64,000 bases of DNA from Phoronis australis. Taxonomy: Eukaryota; Animalia; Phoronida. The stretch is taken from contig NMRA01000048.1 of NCBI GenBank assembly GCA_002633005.1, positions 309,595 through 373,594 on the forward strand, in the 5' to 3' direction. The first letter of the stretch is position 1. Every line of letters starts with the position of its first letter. Under the pieces are notes generated by a model. It worked only from the letters and a program-made list of their open reading frames with translations, did no database searches and was not told the origin of the DNA. Of this stretch, positions 29,982 to 47,647 are shown piece by piece. Position numbers and translations under genes: made by a program.

Positions 29982-31493
29982 TTAGTAAGTTGCTTTTCTC
30001 GCAAAGATTTTAAACGGTTTTGGGACGTTCAGCAGGCCACTTGTTCCCACAACTTCAACTAACTCTTCACTAGGGGTGTAAAATTCAAAGCTTTGTACCA
30101 TCGTGGAAAGAAAGAGAAACAGTTCCATCCGGGCCAGCGATTCACCCAAGCAGACACGTTTTCCCGTTGAAAACGGCATGGTAAAATCCGCCAAAGACTT
30201 CTTGAACTTCCCGGTATGATAATCAAGGAATCTTTCGGGATGAAACTCTTCTGGGTTTGGGAATCTTCTTTCGTCCATGTGAACCGCGTAAATATGAGGT
30301 AAAACAATGGTTTCTGTTGGAATTACGTAGTTTTTGAAAGTCAAATCACAAAGAGTCGTGTGCGGAAGAGCAAAAGGTGCCAAAGGCGGAAGTCTTTGCA
30401 CCTCCGCTAGAAAAGCTTGAGTGTACACCATTTCACTTTTATCGCAAAGCGAAGGTTTTCTGCCTATGCCAACTACCTTGTGTATTTCAGCTCGTAGCTT
30501 CTTTTGCACACCAGGGAACTTGGTTAAATACAGTAGTGCCCATCTCAGAGTACTGGTGGTTGTTTCGGTTCCTGCGAATAACAGGTCTACTAATGTCTTT
30601 CGAAGATAAATGTTTTGCGCCACCGATCTGTCTGCTGCCTTCTGGGAGTCCGACATGGTCATCCGTTCTTCCAAAAAGGCATCAATCAAGTCTGTAACAT
30701 CTCCCTTGGTGTCGTTATTTTCGTGTTCTCTTAAATGTTTGTCAACAATCTCGTCCAAAGACTTCCAAGCCTGAATAATTCTACCCACCTCATTCCGCAA
30801 AATAGGTACGTATTTTATCCAAGGATTCAATATAGCATACGTTGGAATTTCGGCCAGTGCTTCAGATGCCTCGATAAGTTTTAAAAATATTTCATCATCG
30901 TGTTCATATCGCTTCCCAAAGATCAGATTACAAGTGACATTGGAAACGCATCTGGTTAGCAGGTCACTGATGTCAAACTTCCGGTCGCCATTATAAGCAA
31001 TGCCTTGAAGAAGGCACCCCGCCTCTTGCATGATGACGGGTTCGAGACTTCTCTTTCCAAACCCTAGGTCTCCAAGGTGCTTTAAGCAAAATCTGCGGTT
31101 GGTTCTCCATACTTCGCCAACTGACGTAACGACTCCTGTATTTTTAATGAAAACTCCTTCGACTAGATGACTAGAATCGAAACGGCCCGAAAAATCATAC
31201 CTCGACAGGGCTTCCTTGATGTCTTCGTGCGAGTTAATGACTACAATTCTCAAGTTAAATAAGTAGATAGTGAAAATGTCCCCATACGTTTTTGCCAGTT
31301 TCGCCAGTACACGCGCACGTTTGTCTCGTAGAAAGAGGTGTACATTACCAATCAACGGAAGAGGCGTAGGTCCCGGCGGCAAGTAGGCCTTCTCTTTGAA
31401 ACTTCTGTAAATCCACGATATCAATACTGTTAGCATCAATGCAACCACGGTTGCAACACAGTTCTCGAAAATGACTTTGTAGATTACGGCCAT
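29982..31493 (-). CDS. Cytochrome P450, clan 2 (CYP2-like), 503 aa, single coding exon
   Basis: N-terminal anchor, PPGPTPLPLIGN, WRTNR (C helix), LLFAGTETT (I helix), EVQR (ExxR), PERF, FSTGKRVCLG haem motif. Confidence 0.97.
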   Translation of the reverse strand: MAVIYKVIFENCVATVVALMLTVLISWIYRSFKEKAYLPPGPTPLPLIGNVHLFLRDKRARVLAKLAKTYGDIFTIYLFNLRIVVINSHEDIKEALSRYDFSGRFDSSHLVEGVFIKNTGVVTSVGEVWRTNRRFCLKHLGDLGFGKRSLEPVIMQEAGCLLQGIAYNGDRKFDISDLLTRCVSNVTCNLIFGKRYEHDDEIFLKLIEASEALAEIPTYAILNPWIKYVPILRNEVGRIIQAWKSLDEIVDKHLREHENNDTKGDVTDLIDAFLEERMTMSDSQKAADRSVAQNIYLRKTLVDLLFAGTETTTSTLRWALLYLTKFPGVQKKLRAEIHKVVGIGRKPSLCDKSEMVYTQAFLAEVQRLPPLAPFALPHTTLCDLTFKNYVIPTETIVLPHIYAVHMDERRFPNPEEFHPERFLDYHTGKFKKSLADFTMPFSTGKRVCLGESLARMELFLFLSTMVQSFEFYTPSEELVEVVGTSGLLNVPKPFKIFARKATY

Positions 31494-34572: not shown

Positions 34573-36075
34573 CTAAGATATTTTTCTAGCACACAGCTGG
34601 AATGCTACTGGAGAATTTATCAAACCGTCTCTTCCTTTAATGTCAACTGAATCTTCGTCTGCTGTGTAAAACTCGAATGTCTGCATCATTGTTGTAAGGA
34701 ATAAGAACACCTCCATCCTGGCCAGTAACTCGCCTAAGCAGACACGCTTTCCTGTTGAAAATGGCATGGTCAAATCAGCCAATTGTTTGTTGAAGCATCC
34801 GAAGTCGTCAATGAATCTCTCGGGACGAAACACTTCTGGGTCGGGGAAGTTTTGAACGTCCATGTGCACAGCGTTGAGATTGGGTAAAATGATAGTTTCC
34901 GACGGAATATGGTAGTTCTTCAATGTGACATCACAAACAGTCATGTGCGGTACAGCTGTCGGTGTCAATGTCGGAAGTCGCAGCACTTCCGCTATAAAAG
35001 CTTGCGTGTACACCAATTGACTTTTGTCAGCAAGCGACGGTTTCCTGTCTGTGCCTATTACCGTATGTATTTCAGTTTGCAGCTTCTTTTGCACGCCAGG
35101 GAACTTGATTAAATACACCAATGCCCATCTAAGAGTGCTAGTAGTGGTTTCTGTTCCGGCGAAAAGTAGATCGGCTAACGTTTTACGGATGTGGGTGTTT
35201 TCCAAGAATGATCCATTTACTTCTTTCTGAGAACCCGATGTCGTCTTTCTTTCTTTCAAAAAAGCATCAATCAAATCATTTATTTCTCCGCTACTTGTCT
35301 GTTCGTTTTCGTGATCTTTCAAATGCTTGTCAACAATCTCGTCCAAAACTTGAGATGCCTGAACTATTTTACCTACTTCACGCCCCAGAATGGGCAAGTA
35401 TTTAACCCATGGGCTCAATACTAAATAAACAGGACTTTCAGTGAAGACATCTGATGCCTTAAGAAGTTTTAAAAACATTTCATCGTTGTGTTTGTATCGT
35501 TTCCCAAATATCAGGCCGCAGGTGACATTAGAAACACAACTAGCCAAGAGGGCGCTGATGTCAAATTTCTGGTCGCCATGTTGTTCTATTCCTGACAACA
35601 GACATTCTGCCTCTTTTATGATTGTAGGTTCGAGGACTCTCTTTCCAAACCCCATGTCCCCGAGATGTTTTAAACAAAATTTTCGACTGTTCCTCCACAT
35701 TTCCCCAACGGATGTTATAACCCCAGAGTTAGCAAGAAAAACGCCCTCCATGAGGTGACTCGAGTCGAATCGACCTGCGAACTCAATCCTCGATAGGGCG
35801 TCTTTGATATCTTCTCGTGAGTTGACGATAACCACTCTGAGATTGAATAGGTAAACTGTAAATATGTCGCCGTATGTCTTTGCCAATTTCGCCAGCACAT
35901 TTGAAGGTTTGTCTAGCAAAAACAAATGAACATTACCGATCAGTGGGAGAGGTGTAGGTCCAGGAGGCAAGTGCGCCCGCTTTTTCTGACCTTCACGAAA
36001 CCAAAATATCCACAATGTCACAACGAAAATGAACGCCGGAACTAACCAATTGTTGACGACGAAAGAAAGAATCAT
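34573..36075 (-). CDS. Cytochrome P450, clan 2 (CYP2-like), 500 aa, single coding exon; tandem paralogue of 29982-31493
   Basis: PPGPTPLPLIGN, WRNSR, LLFAGTETT, EVLR, PERF, FSTGKRVCLG; colinear with the neighbouring P450. Confidence 0.97.
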   Translation of the reverse strand: MILSFVVNNWLVPAFIFVVTLWIFWFREGQKKRAHLPPGPTPLPLIGNVHLFLLDKPSNVLAKLAKTYGDIFTVYLFNLRVVIVNSREDIKDALSRIEFAGRFDSSHLMEGVFLANSGVITSVGEMWRNSRKFCLKHLGDMGFGKRVLEPTIIKEAECLLSGIEQHGDQKFDISALLASCVSNVTCGLIFGKRYKHNDEMFLKLLKASDVFTESPVYLVLSPWVKYLPILGREVGKIVQASQVLDEIVDKHLKDHENEQTSSGEINDLIDAFLKERKTTSGSQKEVNGSFLENTHIRKTLADLLFAGTETTTSTLRWALVYLIKFPGVQKKLQTEIHTVIGTDRKPSLADKSQLVYTQAFIAEVLRLPTLTPTAVPHMTVCDVTLKNYHIPSETIILPNLNAVHMDVQNFPDPEVFRPERFIDDFGCFNKQLADLTMPFSTGKRVCLGELLARMEVFLFLTTMMQTFEFYTADEDSVDIKGRDGLINSPVAFQLCARKIS

Positions 36076-37950: not shown

Positions 37951-39599
37951 TGAAACTTTCCAGACTTAATATTTAGTCACCAATCTCAAAAACGCTGTTA
38001 GGATTTTTGATATAAAAGCTTAGTTTTTGTGTAATGTGGCAAAAACGAATACGACTTCAATTTTTTACAAAAATACCTTACGTTTTGCGAGTTTATTTGT
38101 CATAGAAACCAAACAAACAAACTAATCGAAAATTCCTAACAGCGTTTTTGAGGTAATTGATGAAGTTTTCATTTAAAAAAGGTTTCGTTAAAATCGACCG
38201 AGGGGTTATTTTGCTATGAATGTACCTTTCTTAAAAATGGAATTTTTACTTAAAAAAGGTTTTTACGTAAAAATAATAATGACAAATAAATACAAAAAGT
38301 ATATTTATATTTCCTGGTCTTTGTTCTTTCAGAAAATATATACTTTTACTAGTTGACAAAGCTTAGTTTTTTTGATATACGAGTTAGAACAGAGGCCACT
38401 AAATAAGGTTTGAAATAACCTTAAACTGAATTTAGCGGAGAATGTTAATATAATGTGAAGTTCTAATGGTGTATCGCAAAATGGCCGGCGAAGTACAAGG
38501 GCCTCAAACCTCACTTTTCTAAAATGCGAATAACGGGCAACAATTTATGAAAAGTTCATATTTTTCTGAACTTCAGTCATATCCGCTACACAAAAACCCA
38601 TCGTTTTTTTTTCTAAATGCTGAAAACAAAGTCGCACATTATTAGTTTTAGCACGTAATATAATTAAAGATGTTGTCGAGTGATCCATTCCACAGTACGG
38701 CCTTGCGCAACTATTCTTAGCTATGTTATCGAACGGCGAGAACTGCGGTTGACCTCGAAATTGCGGTTTTATCGTTAAAACACGTTACGATAACAATTAT
38801 CTGAGGTTCACAGTACAAACTATAAGTCAATGAATTGAATCACCAGTTTCATTTACGGGTTTAAAAAGCTATTACACGATAATTGTATTTGATGTTAGTT
38901 CGACATTTTAAAAAATTGAATGCTGGGATATTTTTCGGCAAACATTTGAGATTAGTACTTTTGGGTTCCGTAAGACGCCCAAAACTACACCCTTGGTGTC
39001 GGCCATTCACGAAAATGAATAGTCTAGAATGTGATTTTGGTGTCACGCAACAAAACGAAGGCCTGACAATTCGCAAGGTCAATGGTGTTCTAAATATGCC
39101 CGTAGAAACAGCTACACAAATAACATCGAAGTTGCAACAGGGTTGTTTCAAGCCATACTTCGCTTTCATTTGCTGGTGCCTTGCGCCACCCTGCCTTCAA
39201 TGGCAAGACAGTGTGCCACACTGGCTAATCCTCGGTCAAAATTTTCACATCCAGCATTACTATTTCTTGTTCATCGTTATTCGCATGTATTGGGAAAAAT
39301 AAACCTACAACATCAAGCACGAGTATCCTCATAGTGCATGGAATATCAAACGATTAGATGTGTTATGTCTTTATTATTCCCGTGAATGTCGTAACACAAG
39401 AAGCAAGTAATTTGTCAAACAGAACTCTTCTTTCAATAGTGAATAAAATCACCGATCGCTTGAAGTTGCTTGTTTCGTATAATTAGTAATTCGTAGACTA
39501 GCAAAAACTAATTTCGTATCCACTTTTAATTTCACTTTTAAAAATTTAGTCTGTAATCACCTTTGTTCTTGTTTCTTCTTATAAGCGAACTACTGTCTC

Positions 39600-39890
39600 T
39601 GTCCAACCTCCATGTCGGTATTGTGCTTGTTATTACACGAAATATACATCTCGTCACACGTTCAAGCACACAAATAGAATCAAAGTGCACACTTCTCACC
39701 ATCTGAACGTTGCTCTGACAGACTCTTGACAAGGACAATGCTGAATAACTGCCTCGCCGGCCATCGGAAGGTATTGATACACATGGGCGGCGCAGCACTG
39801 AAATAAGTGAGGGTATAATGTCTGCCACTAAACAGTCCGAACAGAAGTGGTGTGGAAATGGAACACACTAACCCTCTGTCGATTATATTT
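39600..39890 (-). pseudogene. Decayed RING/B-box fragment paralogous to the N-terminus of the 40204-41580 gene
   Basis: atggaacacactaaccctctgtcgattat (39858) vs atggaacacactaactctctgtccattat (41516). Frame-shifted remnants IIDRGLVCSI, HHFCSDCL, RRP..SIPSDG and TCDEMYISC, with stops and deletions. Confidence 0.8.
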
Positions 39891-40203
39891 GCCCATAGAG
39901 GTTGCACCTGGCCAAAATATTTGCATTTTGGAGATTGATGTTTTGTATAGACAACAGACGTGACGTCTTTGTGAACGCTCATTTTAAGCGGCTAATTTGC
40001 CCAATCGGACGTCTTCTCCATACACAATTCTACAGCAGAACGCAAAGTAAGAGAGGAACATAATCTGCAGTGAATGATACATTAAGGAGTCAAGTCTAGA
40101 TGAGGATCGGTCTCTGCCTCCTCAATCTTTTCAGTGCACGAAGTGACCATCCCAGTATGTTTCATTCTACAGTCTCCAATTCACCAACCTACCAGTTTGA
40201 CGC

Positions 40204-41580
40204 CTATCGGCGTTTCTTATTTCTTCTATTCTTTGTTTTCGTGGAGTTCGTTTGCTGGTTTCCATTACTCCCGCTGTTCGGCCTCAAAGATTGCGCTGTA
40301 GCACATCCTTCTCGTGGTGGTCGTTCATTTTTCTGTTGGTTGACGAGTACATCAGAAATTTGTGGGAAAATATAAACAAAGTGTGTGTTTGGTCTCGCGT
40401 TCCGAAATAGCTCCTCACAACAAGACGCCCATTCGTTAATATTGTAAACTTTTTCACCAACACAAAAATGAAAATCACGTTGAAATCCATACATTCTCAC
40501 TTTCAACCACGCCTCGCCAGTGGTTGCCTTGTGCGTTACTCCACACTGCACGCAGAAGTACCAGCACGACAAACCAGTGAACAGTGCGCGGTGAAACTCT
40601 TTACATTTCCTGCAAGGAATCAGTATGACCTGTTCATAGCTTCTTTCGCGTGAGCTTGTGCCATACCACACACGTCTTAGGAGAACCATCGGAAAATCAA
40701 AACATATCAAACGTATTGCTGCCAACATGATTGCGCATGTAGTGAAAAATAAAGAAATCAAAGCATACAGCAGCTCCTTTGTTTCAGAAGATTTCTGTTT
40801 ACCTTCTCCATAAAGCCGTAAATATTGAACCTCAGGCATGACAATGTGGTCACTGCAAGTGTTTCCGAGGTTCTCACTGCTTGTCTCGTCAATGTCATCG
40901 ATAGGCAACATGGCTGCAGGCCCACTAATAATTGCCTGTTCTAAATCGTCGTCCAAATACGTAACCAATTCATTCAATCTCTTTGCCGACTTTAGTATGT
41001 CTGATGTTTTGTCATGTACTTTAAGTTCAGAAATTTCATTTGTTAAATCGTCAACTCTTGTCTCAAAATTTCTTTTTACGTGTAAATCAAGTCGAGATCT
41101 CATTTTTGACGTGACCTTGTGCAATTTAGAAACAAGACGTCGTTCATGTATTTCAGTTACTTTTTCAATGCGGACAATTTTGTGACAGTTCGTCTCGTTT
41201 TGGTGTTGTTTCTTACATGAAATGCATATCATCGTGTTATCACACGTTAAACACACCAGCCTGGCTATGCACTCGTGACAACGATCACATCGTTCCCGAT
41301 TTGGATGTTGCTTCACTGAGTCCACCAAATTCTTTACAATGACATTACAGAGAAATTGTTTAGGACCGTCTGGAGGGATTGCTATAGGACGTCGGCAAAT
41401 CGGACAAGGGTAGTAGCCATCACGTGACCTGGCCTGGACGTCTTTCTCCAGACAGTCTAAGCAGAAGTCGTGTCCACATTCGAGCGAGCGTGGATTTGAA
41501 AAGATTTCCGTACATATGGAACACACTAACTCTCTGTCCATTATTTCTTCTTGCTCTTCTCTCAAATTACATGCAGCCAT
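40204..41580 (-). CDS. TRIM-like RING/B-box/coiled-coil E3 ligase with hydrophobic segment and C-terminal Jiv90 (DNAJC14-type) domain, 458 aa, single coding exon
   Basis: C3HC4 RING aa20-62; B-box-like aa98-133; helical region ~140-215; hydrophobic aa270-301; Jiv90 aa~320-404 (CRKCKEFHR...CVQCGVTHKATTGEAW...MYG...KVYNINEWASC...PNTHFV); basic tail. Candidate 5'UTR acceptor ttttttacag at 41600-41609. Confidence 0.92.
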   Translation of the reverse strand: MAACNLREEQEEIMDRELVCSICTEIFSNPRSLECGHDFCLDCLEKDVQARSRDGYYPCPICRRPIAIPPDGPKQFLCNVIVKNLVDSVKQHPNRERCDRCHECIARLVCLTCDNTMICISCKKQHQNETNCHKIVRIEKVTEIHERRLVSKLHKVTSKMRSRLDLHVKRNFETRVDDLTNEISELKVHDKTSDILKSAKRLNELVTYLDDDLEQAIISGPAAMLPIDDIDETSSENLGNTCSDHIVMPEVQYLRLYGEGKQKSSETKELLYALISLFFTTCAIMLAAIRLICFDFPMVLLRRVWYGTSSRERSYEQVILIPCRKCKEFHRALFTGLSCWYFCVQCGVTHKATTGEAWLKVRMYGFQRDFHFCVGEKVYNINEWASCCEELFRNARPNTHFVYIFPQISDVLVNQQKNERPPREGCATAQSLRPNSGSNGNQQTNSTKTKNRRNKKRR

Positions 41581-42516
41581 TTTCGACGTTCAGCTTTAGC
41601 TGTAAAAAACGACATCATTGAAAAAGATCGACTTCACACACTAGGATGGCTCAAAATGGAACCTAAACAGGGAAGTGTACAGGCAGCCGAGGGGCTACCT
41701 GCTTAAAATTCTATTCTTTGAAAGTCATAAGGGATTTCAGCAGAAGAATGAAAGCAGCCTGAAAGTGAAACAAAAAATGACTAAATAACTATAGGGCAAT
41801 AAAGTAGAGTATTGGGATAAGTTTATCTACATTACGGATTAAATACAGCTAAATGAAATAACATGACCTCTTACCGCTGTTTAGTCGATGAACATGGCCG
41901 TCACAACCAAAAGGCATGCCGAAAGGTGGCGATACCTAATTCTAATGATTTTGGTTTATGTTTTGTGTCAGACAGTACAACCTAATGAGACAAATTGGTA
42001 CCGCCGCCTGAAGCAGTCTAGGTGAGACGGTGATCATGCCATAGCCGCCATACTGGGACGTTTTTCGGCTCATTATGCCTCACACCAGGACTGGTTATCT
42101 CTTCCTGCACACACCGGATTAAATCGTGAAAGTCGTGTTGTGGTACTTTTGCCGCATAGATCGAGGGACACCTCAAGAGGTCGTTGGTGTCTTTAACTCT
42201 TCCTAACACGGCCAAATACGTTAGCAATCAGCCTTTTTCTCGAGCAATTTTTCGTTCAGACATCTATACCTGCAAATGGCCGTTTTTGCAATGCTTCTAA
42301 AGCATGACATGTAATTTTGATTTTATGAGTAAGAACAAAGTAGATATAGTAATTGTATTCTGCGTCATAATGCTTGCGCAATAGTCATTAAGACAGAAAT
42401 TGCGCAAACAACGACAAAATTCGACTATTTACAGCAAGGAATGGTAGAATTTAGTTTGGGTAACCAACTAAATTCCATAGAGAAGATAAAACCGTACTCA
42501 CTCATGACAGCGTTTT

Positions 42517-43576
42517 CATTACGGCGTTTTCCCGTTGCTCCCAACTTGTTCGATTCTATAGCCCAACAACAAGTTGGGAAGTTTATCCCCGTAGCCAATA
42601 TCTTACACCACTGATTAACTCCATTCTGGCATTGATGGTTGGAGGGCTAGCTTTCTTTTGTTCGATAATTGCTCAGGCTCTAATCTCCAAGAAGATCCTA
42701 TCTACCCAGAGTGGGTTGTGCTGTTAAAAGTTAAGGTATAACATATTTGAACATAAACCAATAGCATTTCTGAAATCTCCGTCAAATGGTGATCTAGTTT
42801 TTGAATAGCCAAAATCTCCCAACTGCAACCGAAATTACGACAATCTATTCTTTACGAATACACCAATTCACTCTGAGTTTGATTGTGTTCAACGTGGTCT
42901 GTAATAAGCCTGGTAGATAATTGGCCTGCCTGTTGTCGTAAAAGACAAAAGTTTGTGCTTGGCAGTTAACAAAGAAGCTAGATGTTATCACACGCTCAGA
43001 ACTGAACCCCCTACGTATGGTAAAGAGACTGAACGGGAAAACGCAGTCATGTTCCCGTTCAGGGATTTTACCAGAAGAAGGGGGTTCTGAGCGTGTGATA
43101 ACATCTAGCTTCTTTGTTAACTGCCAAGCACAGTCTTTTGTCTGTTATGACAACGGGCACGCCAATTATCTACCAGGCTTATTAAAGACCACGTGTGAAC
43201 ACCGTCAAACCCAGAGTGAATTGGTATACATTCGGAAAGAATAGATTATTGTAACTTCGGTTGCAGTTGGGAGATTTTGGTGATTCAAAAACTAAACATG
43301 ACCACCATTTGACGAGGATTTCAGTAATGCTATTGGTTTATGTTCGAATTAGTTATAACTTAACTTTTATTTTTAACAGCACAGTCCAGTCAGGCTAGAT
43401 ACGATATTGTTGAAGATTAGAGCAGTTATCGAACAAGAGAGAGCTGGCCCTCCAACCATAAATTCCAGAATGGAATTAACCAGTCGTGTAAGATATGCCT
43501 ACAGGGTTGTTCTTCCCAACTTGTTGTTGGGCTGTAGAATCCAACAACATGGGAGTAACGGGAAAACGCCGTAATG
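42517..43576. mobile_element. ~1.06-kb fold-back (long inverted repeat, ~510-bp arms, short centre)
   Basis: cattacggcgttttcccgtt (42517) pairs with aacgggaaaacgccgtaatg (ends 43576); gcagttaacaaagaagctagatgttatcacacgctcagaa (42962) pairs with ttctgagcgtgtgataacatctagcttctttgttaactgc (43085). Confidence 0.93.
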
Positions 43577-44229
43577 CGTCCACACTGTCGACTTCCCTCA
43601 CCAACCCACGTGGACAGTGCTTCCACCGAAACTACTTAAAATTAGTTAGTGACTGCAGTAACTCGTAACGTCTTATCGTAGGCAGGCCCTCAATTAACGA
43701 ACATAGTTACACGTCTCTACCACCATTTAGGACCCAATTGCAACATAAAGGAAATAACAGTATTAGTCATAGTATCCGTCCTTTGATGTTATGCTAAGAG
43801 CACTAGGCTCCTATAAGGACACTCACATTCAACTAGTCAGGGATGGACATAATTGGGTGGGATTATCGTTCTTACTCATGAGATCAAATGTTCATGCTAT
43901 GCTTTACAAGCATTTATGAATTCGTAAGAACGGTAGTAATTATAATAATTGCATGTTTAAAGCTTCATTGTTAACACTTTATTTTACAAACTCTGGGTCT
44001 TAGTGCGTGGGAGCTCAGTCTGTGGTAAAATTTTGAAAGTGTTAACATGGCCCAATTGGCACAGGCTGTTATCTGCCGTACGTGCAGAGGCACCTAAATG
44101 CCTGGCTTTTGAAACTGAAGCAGCTATATAGTTAAATGTGCTTCGAAAATTGAAGTATCAGTTCCGGTTGCAGCCATCTCTTTGAGCCATCGTCCTATAG
44201 AACACGCCACAACCTTTTGAGGTCTGCGA

Positions 44230-45200: not shown

Positions 45201-47647
45201 AATGACAGCAAACTTACCCCACCAAGGTGGATGTATGAATTTAGAATAGGAATTTTTCGATTAGGGTCTTGTAAAATAGGCGAATTGAAGATACGTGCGC
45301 AAGTATTCTGACGCAGAATGTTATTATTTTAACTACCTTCTGTTCTTACGAAATGATTTTGGAAATTTTTGTTAAAATAATTGATTATTTCTCAAAAAGG
45401 CTTGCCAGATTCTTGTTCTGAAGTGACAGATACCACTTTTAATTAAGTTTGTGTTACATGATGTATCAGTCGATGCTTTGTTTCTCTAAATTACATACAG
45501 AAAATGTTAACAGTGTCACAGTAACAAGTTGAATTTTGGCACAAATCACCGCAAAATTTATTTCACTAGCAAATAATTGCTAAACGTAAATAACAATAAG
45601 CAGGAATTGTTGGTCTTTACACACGCCATGTTGGTCACATTACGTGAGTGAATAGATCTCTGTTTCGATCGGGGTTTGACTCCAGACTTTCTGCTAACGT
45701 GGCTGATGGGATTCAAATAAAACTTTAGGATATTGCGCCTTATGCACTTTTCCCCAAGAGCTTTTAGAGGTTGTTGTTTTTGGATTGCATGAGGCGCTAG
45801 CCAAAAGTAGTAGTTCCATGAAAACCGTAAACAGTGCATAAAACGAAAAAAGTGTGGCGTAGAAAACAGTATCATCGTTTATGAGATTTCGTCTTGAATG
45901 TTTACATCAAAAGAAAATTGGTCGCGTTATCTTAATAACAACGGTGTTAAAACACCGTTGATTTGCTATGAGTGTATCTCTCTTTTAATTAAAAATCTCT
46001 TTTTCCGGGATATTGTTAAAAATTTGGTCAAGTGAACCAGATTGGCCCGTTAGGTCAAAATATGCTGACTTTCTACTTTCATGCAATATAATACTTTTAG
46101 AAAGTTAAATTGCAGTTTTGTCGATTTGACTAAAGGTGAGGTCCCACATAAATGTACGTCCTGACATTAATGTTTGGAGTAACTTTTATTTTATCCCATA
46201 AATGTGTGAATACAGCCACGTAATACGCCGTGAAATACGCTATTGAATACTGGAAAGTAGTACCAATCCGTATTCAAAGGTTGAGACCGTATTTCACGGT
46301 TGGGGTACAGTATCCTGGTGGAGTAAATTCCCGTCCACGAAGGCAAATTTTGTTAGTCTTGTTCACTTGGCCCTCAAAATTCACTAAAGATGTAGTTCCT
46401 GGAAAATTTTCACTGTTCTAAAAACTATAAGCAAAGATTTTCCGACGAGAATTCCGCCGCAAGGTGATCGGGGTGTAGTTCTTAAGCGCTGCTATTCTTA
46501 ATCTGTGTCATCAAACATAGATTAATTTGCCTATACATGAACGTACACAACAGAATCAGGCAAGAATTTATTTCGAATCAAACGAAAACGTTATGTTATG
46601 AATGCATACTTGTGCGTTCCCGGCCATGCAGTTCAAGTGTTCAGTCCGGTCTTCTGGGCAAATTCTGCCGTTTGTCGGAGTGACGCAGTCGGGTCCTACA
46701 GTTTTTGGAGCTTCATCGCACTGGGCCATGTCTAGCACCTTAAGATGTCGAAGGTAGGGCAGCACCTGTAGTAGGTTTTCAGGTGTTTGGGGGCCAGTAC
46801 AACACCACACGGGCACTAATCTGTGATTTTCAGGCGATACGGGTGGGAAAGGAGCTGACAGCGGCCAGTTCTCCGCCTAAAGATGGCGACTTGTTATTAC
46901 CGGTCTAGTTAGTTGATATAGCCTTCTTCAGTCCGAAGACGTAGACGTTAACTCCAGGCATTTCTTAAGTGGCTTCATAGCAAAGTCTATACCTCTCCAT
47001 TGATGGGTGGGTTATTATGTTCCAGTTTGCTTCCTGCCTTAGTGAGTGCTTCCTCGTTTCCGCTGATATTGCAGTGGGGGAACCCCTTGCAGCAAAACAG
47101 TGGTTGTGTTGCTGAAAATTATCTCTGCTTGATGTATTGCCAAAATCTGGTCTCTTCCTCTCATCTGGAGATCGGCAGCCTGTGAGGAAGACTGTCTGAT
47201 CCAGCAGTCTTGTTTGCTGGTTTAGTGTCTGGGCTGCGAGGTACGCGGAGTTTGCCTCAGGTCGGTAGTTGGTGGAGTGAAAGCCTGTGGCGATGGGCTT
47301 GCGTAGAGAGCTGCCGTCTGGGTATATGATTAATGCCCCACCTCTCTCATTTCTAACAGCATTCTCAGCAGAGCTATCTGTACAGACTTGGGTCCAGGTC
47401 GTGGTGCGGTAGTTTCTGTCCTGTTTTTCCAGGATCAGGGGCCTTCAAAACCGCCCCAGTGTCTGCTTCGCTCCAGTCCCAGGGAAGTTAAGGACGATGG
47501 AGGAGCGTCCAGTGACCATTGCACAACGCCATGGAGAATTTGTAGTGGGTAATGGTTGAGGGTAGGTGCTGGTTGGTGTATCTGCTGAAGCACCTTGATT
47601 AGGTGGTTTGGGCTCTGCCTCTTGATGCGGTTTTTGGTTGGTGCTTA

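Follow-up and report, generated by a model that had tools for sequence, protein, structure and literature searches.

A TRIM-like RING/B-box gene of Phoronis australis ending in a diverged DNAJC14 Jiv90 domain

The gene and its domains

A gene of the phoronid Phoronis australis joins a TRIM-type front, with a RING and a type 1 B-box, to Jiv90, a domain that DNAJC14 carries together with a J domain, and it does so without the J domain. The gene lies in a 64,000-nucleotide (nt) stretch of assembly GCA_002633005.1 (contig NMRA01000048.1, positions 309,595-373,594 of the forward strand), which was analysed whole and is called the window; all positions below are window positions. Its 458-codon open reading frame (ORF) at 40204-41580 on the minus strand has zero internal stops. 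An earlier note on this DNA had described a single-exon fusion and a candidate antiviral decoy. The single exon holds for the coding region but not for the gene, for which RNA reads reveal upstream exons (donor at 41874, acceptor at 41759).

The fusion is physically real. A contig assembled separately from DNA run X3 crosses 40106-41661 as one piece without a break, differing from the window by 34 substitutions and a 3-nt insertion, and depth of DNA run X1 over the ORF is even (about 38-61), with a 3-nt deletion at half depth. Together, the even depth, the half-depth deletion and the contig variants fit two likely alleles of a single-copy locus, and both allelic indels are in frame. All four DNA runs come from the same single sample, possibly the source of the assembly, and contigs of this kind may mix haplotypes. 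This shared source, together with the N gaps and many repeats in the window, might suggest that a TRIM gene was wrongly joined to a DNAJC14 fragment. Such an artefact is very improbable, however, given the unbroken contig from the other allele, the even depth, the frame open over 458 codons and a Jiv90 too diverged to be a fragment of canonical DNAJC14. Misassembly between RING and Jiv90 is thus largely refuted.

The Jiv90 match scores 50.8 bits against a Pfam cut-off of 27. Profile searches returned RING and Jiv90 but no DnaJ (none at E ≤ 1 in the ORF), as the earlier note had anticipated; our own DNAJC14 hidden Markov model (HMM) aligns to residues 321-403 only, and the J domain with its HPD motif is absent from the ORF. 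No second Jiv90 or J domain occurs elsewhere in the window. Both CxxCxxxH motifs proposed previously are present, with all eight Cys/His residues kept. Jiv90 numbering was set by two pestivirus contigs with a mammal-derived Jiv90 insert, and alignment to this insert confirms that W358 corresponds to W39, the residue whose alanine substitution (W39A) is inactive (PMC9364808). Deeply conserved columns were defined as those conserved in the mammal-derived row, in one row of a second group and in 90% or more of 80 rows, mostly from arthropods. Of the 30 such columns, 17 are kept, including all eight Cys/His (hypergeometric p = 0.004, a value somewhat inflated because HMM detection favours cysteines). 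W39, Y60 and W65, and so both tryptophans, are retained, and the conserved charged or polar residues R11, R16, R22, E35, E41, D61 and Q69 are replaced.

Overall, the domain is far more diverged than its counterparts: it is 29-37% identical to every DNAJC14 compared, whereas DNAJC14 proteins of distant animals share 44-57% with each other. Its branch is by far the longest in a Jiv90 tree, which cannot place a branch of this length. A structural model from a 39-row alignment reached a predicted local distance difference test (pLDDT) score of 82.5. Fold matches with E < 0.001 were limited to four bovine viral diarrhoea virus (BVDV) polyproteins (template modelling (TM) scores 0.63-0.69), a partly circular result as the model leans on DNAJC14 rows. 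Searches for a solved Jiv90 relative gave 0 matches by sequence and none by Foldseek, with a best VIA-align Z of 4.5.

The RING lies where the earlier note had placed it. TRIM2 and TRIM56 are the best PDB sequence matches of this front, and the zinc ligands are all invariant across a 28-row alignment. E3 ubiquitin-ligase activity may be predicted from the intact RING. The proposed B-box is a zinc motif with its eight ligands, but of type 1 only, and at 18 bits it falls under the Pfam zf-B_box cut-off of 24.1; no B-box 2 was found in the ORF, by pattern or by our own B-box-2 HMM. Because B-box 2 is missing, the front is TRIM-like rather than that of a canonical TRIM; TRIM proteins with a single B-box always carry type 2 (PMC2533329). 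By a simple regular expression, the type 1 pattern occurs alone in 19 of 149 invertebrate-type relatives. The helical region noted previously is indeed helical in a low-confidence model (whole-protein single-sequence fold, pLDDT 37), but it has no TRIM_CC Pfam match and a weak heptad signal (best a/d fraction 0.43). A homodimer prediction for residues 92-220 scored 0.17.

The hydrophobic stretch reported near residues 270-301 was borne out (Kyte-Doolittle 19-mer peak 2.23) and is likely the membrane anchor of the predicted topology. Since a single pass would put the RING and Jiv90 zinc domains on opposite sides of the membrane, a hairpin or re-entrant anchor would be needed. A derivation of this segment from the membrane segment of DNAJC14, through excision of the J domain, was unsupported: in two tests of 1000 shuffles each, 441 and 734 scored equally high, in a comparison whose DNAJC14 rows were arthropod only. 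Coordinates of all features are given in Table 1.

Table 1. Features of the fusion gene and its surroundings (window positions)
Feature	Position	Strand	Basis
Intact ORF, 458 codons, coding region in one exon	40204..41580	-	Spanned by run X3 contig 40106-41661
C3HC4 RING, residues 20-62, TRIM2/TRIM56-like	41395..41523	-	Pfam zf-RING_UBOX, E 5e-10
B-box type 1, residues 98-133, all 8 ligands	41182..41289	-	Pattern and own B-box-1 HMM, 16.9 bits
Predicted helical segment, residues 141-218, possible short coiled coil	40927..41160	-	Low-confidence model only
Hydrophobic segment, 33 residues (270-302), likely membrane anchor	40675..40773	-	Kyte-Doolittle
Diverged Jiv90, residues 321-402	40375..40620	-	Pfam PF14901, E 2e-13
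Jiv90 residues kept: C323, C326, H330, C343, C346, H350, C387, H400 and W358	W358 codon 40507-40509	-	
Site T354/G355 of DNAJC14 phase-0 intron, intron absent here	40518..40519	-	AG immediately 5' of GDxW, 13 of 17 loci
DNAJC14-like C-terminal tail ending in basic patch	40207..40374	-	Lysine/arginine count
Alternative acceptor in ORF, Q416/K417	40332..40333	-	4 reads from 2 starts, run X6
5' untranslated exon, acceptor 41759, upstream exon ends near 43640	41700..41758	-	4-read loose X6 end matching ~43640-43669
Mapped part of 5' exon with donor GTAAGAG at 41874	41874..41960	-	RNA depth 2-5 and splice joint 41875 to 40332
Degraded tandem copy of RING/B-box start, with frameshifts and stops, without Jiv90	39518..39971	-	Local alignment

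Origin of the Jiv90 part and comparison with known proteins

Intron positions bear on how the domain was acquired. We surveyed 18 DNAJC14 loci from metagenome contigs, 17 of which cover the HxAxE/GDxW site. In 13 of these 17 an AG stands immediately before GDxW, with a GT donor as well in 8 of the 13, and the remaining 4 are continuous and transcript-like. The intron-bearing loci belong to a termite-like group and to a second, distant animal group. The fusion gene has no intron at this E/G site. Furthermore, the basic tail, described by the earlier note and present, is not a separate feature but itself DNAJC14-like: at least six lysines or arginines among the last 12 residues occur in 72 of 80 DNAJC14 rows versus 3 of 149 RING/TRIM rows. 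Because the DNAJC14 intron is absent and the tail is DNAJC14-like, the captured part likely runs from Jiv90 through the basic tail and likely derives from the 3' end of a processed DNAJC14 mRNA, that is, by retrocopy capture. The missing intron backs the TRIMCyp-like origin suggested earlier. Alternatively, the intron may have been lost in P. australis' own DNAJC14. No retrocopy A-tract was found within 1.5 kb downstream of the stop, although such marks decay in old copies. The capture is probably old, given the very long branch on which the zinc core has nonetheless been fully kept.

The earlier note knew of no TRIM with a C-terminal Jiv90, and we found no second example in protein databases, metagenome loci or the literature. 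A phmmer search of 1.84 billion representatives gave 6155 matches, of which the best 150 were examined (cut-off 57.8 bits); a protein carrying both parts should rank high among these. None did so: 149 lack Jiv90 and 1 is a DnaJ-Jiv90 protein. A Jiv90 profile search recovered 82 proteins, 79 with DnaJ and Jiv90, 3 with Jiv90 only and 0 with a RING, in a census biased by being nearly all arthropod. RING matches were likewise absent from the 18 metagenome DNAJC14 loci, and a word-index homologue search, an insensitive method, found none among 48 candidates for the C-terminal region or 1941 for the whole protein. One protein (P0105) first resembled a second fusion, with 17.6 bits against the C-terminal region; the aligned segment proved to be its B-boxes, and it has no Pfam Jiv90 match. 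The ESM Atlas gave leads only, all below 0.9, to TRIM-like clusters for the whole protein and to DnaJ-Jiv90 clusters for residues 262-420. No RING/TRIM-Jiv90 fusion is described in the literature searched, which did not extend to subscription papers, supplements and InterPro architecture tables; nor did we find a paper on a DNAJC14 retrocopy or, judged by title, on positive selection in DNAJC14.

The closest parallel is TRIMCyp, known as TRIM5-cyclophilin A of owl monkey and macaque and as zebrafish ftr52 with RanBD/CypA; retrotransposition gave rise to the TRIM-CypA fusions, which act against viruses (PMC3137616, PMC2279257). TRIMCyp and the P. australis fusion share a RING-bearing TRIM front on a virus-exploited host protein, an intron-less captured part consistent with retrotransposition, and alternative splicing at the locus. 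They differ in cargo (Jiv90, not CypA), in that the fusion's entire coding region occupies a single exon instead of including a spliced-on retro-exon, in having B-box 1 only, a coiled coil that is only possible and an added membrane segment, and in the far greater divergence of the captured domain. The antiviral activity of TRIMCyp is established and that of the fusion is putative. With DNAJC14 (also Jiv or DRiP78; PMC3020928, PMC9364808, PMC12908451) the fusion shares the zinc core, W39, the basic tail and an upstream hydrophobic segment. In contrast to DNAJC14, it has a RING/B-box front in place of any J domain or HPD, no E/G intron, low identity and a membrane segment without likeness to that of DNAJC14.

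Among the best 150 of the 6155 matches, invertebrate TRIM56/TRIM2-like RING-B-box proteins are the closest relatives of the front half, but unlike the fusion, 0 of the 149 RING matches carry Jiv90. Two Branchiostoma lanceolatum proteins (P0039 and P0155), one of them named USP7 by its source, have RING-B-box-MATH architectures and represent a parallel TRIM capture; like the fusion, P0039 lacks B-box 2, and its B-box 1 precedes a substrate-binding domain taken from elsewhere. Domain capture by TRIM proteins thus looks like a known, seemingly recurrent kind of event, with Jiv90 as a new cargo. A broader analogy is with integrated-decoy immune receptors, which place a copy of a pathogen-targeted host domain on an effector module (definition in PMC11781737). 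The fusion differs from these in its predicted output, ubiquitination rather than inflammasome or nucleotide-binding leucine-rich repeat (NLR) signalling, and in that its decoy role is putative. Integrated heavy-metal-associated (HMA) domains of plant NLRs show fast divergence and allelic variation, which the Jiv90 of the fusion resembles.

Transcription, allelic variation and surroundings

Raw RNA reads of the same species came from three runs, two of them from two other samples (~18-19% of each of these two runs read). Reads within the ORF come from the expected strand only. Depth is ~1-4 over RING, B-box, Jiv90 and tail in two of the three runs, with 17 and 23 reads on 39830-42240; the third run has almost none. 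The contiguity of the transcript is supported in part: RNA covers the RING and covers Jiv90, but with zero reads at 40640-41125 no read joins them. No splice separating RING from Jiv90 is listed. Four X6 reads from two starts instead splice from donor 41874 to acceptor 40333, skipping everything from RING through Jiv90. This acceptor is in frame and lies just after Jiv90, in the linker that also holds an exon boundary in genomic DNAJC14 loci, and it might be a remnant. The donor of the 5' untranslated exon, near 41700, is predicted only. At the end of the upstream X6 exon (~43632-43640, minus strand) the assembly reads TTAAGT rather than GT, and the donor is likely polymorphic or misassembled there. 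Five X5 reads carry a different N-terminal start before the RING (41562), which suggests an expressed paralogue or a divergent allele.

Between the two alleles, 33 of the 34 substitutions in the X3 contig fall in the ORF, affecting 32 codons: 13 silent, 19 changed and no stop. The ratio of nonsynonymous to synonymous polymorphism (pN/pS) over the whole ORF is 0.39 (p = 0.014 versus neutrality). RING and B-box together have 4 silent and 1 changed codon, indicating purifying selection (p = 0.007), versus 1 silent and 7 changed in the Jiv90 region (residues 311-405; Fisher p = 0.032), where pN/pS is ~1.75. Three of the Jiv90 changes sit 2-6 residues after W358. The pattern fits both diversifying selection and relaxed constraint.

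The surroundings are repetitive. Between the 5' exons of the gene, a high-copy fold-back element at 42517-43576 forms a near 1-kb palindrome of nested inverted arms. The degraded RING/B-box copy aligns with a score of 102 versus a maximum of 49 in 30 shuffles, and has within it a very high-copy repeat end of ~30 bp (39782-39813). Two tandem, intron-less and intact cytochrome P450 genes lie on the minus strand at 29982-31493 (503 residues) and 34573-36075 (500 residues), with Pfam p450 matches at E 9e-114 and 2e-111 and 72% DNA identity. A transcribed minus-strand stretch at ~46700-47500 has a depth of ~4-8 in runs X5 and X6; by eye, it is presumably a broken retrotransposon RNase H region.

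Possible functions of the fusion

So, what might a RING-Jiv90 protein do? The reading we favour, tentatively and at somewhat less than even confidence, is that an expressed chimera acts as a likely membrane-anchored ligase whose Jiv90 is a fast-evolving bait for a pathogen protein. It starts from the observed domain order, the intact frame, two likely alleles with in-frame indels, and RNA over both RING and Jiv90. The 3' part would stem from reverse-transcribed DNAJC14 mRNA, taken from Jiv90 to the basic tail without the J domain. Lacking J domain and HPD, the protein would make no client handover to Hsp70, and a partner docked on Jiv90 would instead be brought to the RING and ubiquitinated, with a hairpin or re-entrant anchor formed by the 33-residue stretch keeping both zinc domains cytosolic. 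Least certain is the partner, which may come from a DNAJC14-exploiting RNA virus or other parasite, the remodelled, polymorphic surface recording the conflict. We favour a pathogen-facing bait over host clients or drift because a kept zinc core is combined with this surface. Jiv90 by itself activates pestivirus NS2 (PMC12908451), and flavi-like viruses are known from marine invertebrates, among them an acorn worm and a cnidarian (PMC9854234). An antiviral role of the fusion is plausible but unproven.

Several points weigh against the bait. Its docking partner is conjectural, and its ligase activity is a prediction from the RING. Expression is low and nearly nil in one run, no read links the two halves, and an isoform skips both. 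TRIM5 restriction requires B-box 2, which the fusion lacks. Likeness to the host target is expected of a bait, but 13 of 22 deeply conserved non-Cys/His residues are replaced. The Jiv90 polymorphism could be distinguished neither from neutrality (p = 1.0) nor from polymorphism elsewhere in the gene (p = 0.10), in a test on 8 codons from one sample with regions picked after seeing the data. Y617 and I619, required for full stimulation of pestivirus NS2-3 (PMC3020928), correspond by count to Jiv90 Y82 and I84, and the VxYxI motif there reads V-Y-I-F-P in the fusion, shifted or altered. With yellow fever virus, it was the J domain and the last 77 residues that counted, not the cysteines of Jiv90 (PMC3020928), and one pestivirus is independent of DNAJC14 (PMC9364808).

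Two other accounts are each unlikely, though serious. The fusion may be a housekeeping ligase whose Jiv90 keeps the client binding of DNAJC14, for example to endoplasmic reticulum receptor tails, with the RING sending clients to degradation instead of Hsp70 folding. In support, the dopamine D1 receptor tail is bound by the zinc fingers of Jiv90 (PMC3020928), the fusion retains the zinc core as well as a membrane segment, and the RING and B-box are under purifying selection; a domain with fixed clients, however, should stay conserved as in DNAJC14, which is 51-57% identical between distant animals, and here it has both the low identity and most of the amino-acid polymorphism. The fusion may also be a lineage-restricted chimera under relaxed constraint, with a useful RING and a drifting Jiv90 tail, as TRIM chimeras are frequent in such genomes and mostly short-lived. 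A Jiv90-region pN/pS not different from 1, the low expression, the skipping isoform, the adjoining decayed tandem copy and the lack of an orthologue in the word-index and phmmer searches (best 150 of 6155 matches) all accord with drift, whereas retention of eight Cys/His and both tryptophans despite very large divergence (p = 0.004) does not. Neither allele has a stop or frameshift, which also speaks against drift, weakly when taken alone (the chance of no stop among 33 changes is P = 0.17). It is improbable that the fusion is, more narrowly, a decoy that engages the NS2-type autoprotease of pesti-like viruses through the surface used by cattle Jiv90. Such a decoy would agree with the retained W39, Y60 and W65 and the fold match to the BVDV Jiv90 inserts, but residues around W39 have changed (E35, D37, A40, E41), the Y82/I84 motif is shifted, and the pesti-like viruses encountered in PMC9854234 were from vertebrates save for one unclassified sequence from a marine-parasite library. 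The pestivirus-NS2-type target envisaged by the earlier note is thus weakened by the low identity, the replaced conserved residues and the disturbed motif.

Whatever its role, the fusion is a natural mutational scan of Jiv90, separating residues that hold the fold from those that can change. If the housekeeping account is correct, a client-binding module of a chaperone has been rewired from folding to degradation. If Jiv90 is instead a bait, it would join cyclophilin A as a host cofactor turned TRIM sensor, and dependence on DNAJC14 would be an ancient feature of invertebrate RNA viruses. The boldest version, which we consider rather doubtful, holds that a TRIMCyp-like restriction factor acting on flavi- or pesti-like viruses evolved independently in an invertebrate, through retrocopying of the same domain of DNAJC14 that pestiviruses of cattle insert into their genomes. 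These 90 residues would then have been acquired by both host and virus, to opposing purposes, and the variable surface next to W358 would trace an arms race that is still under way.
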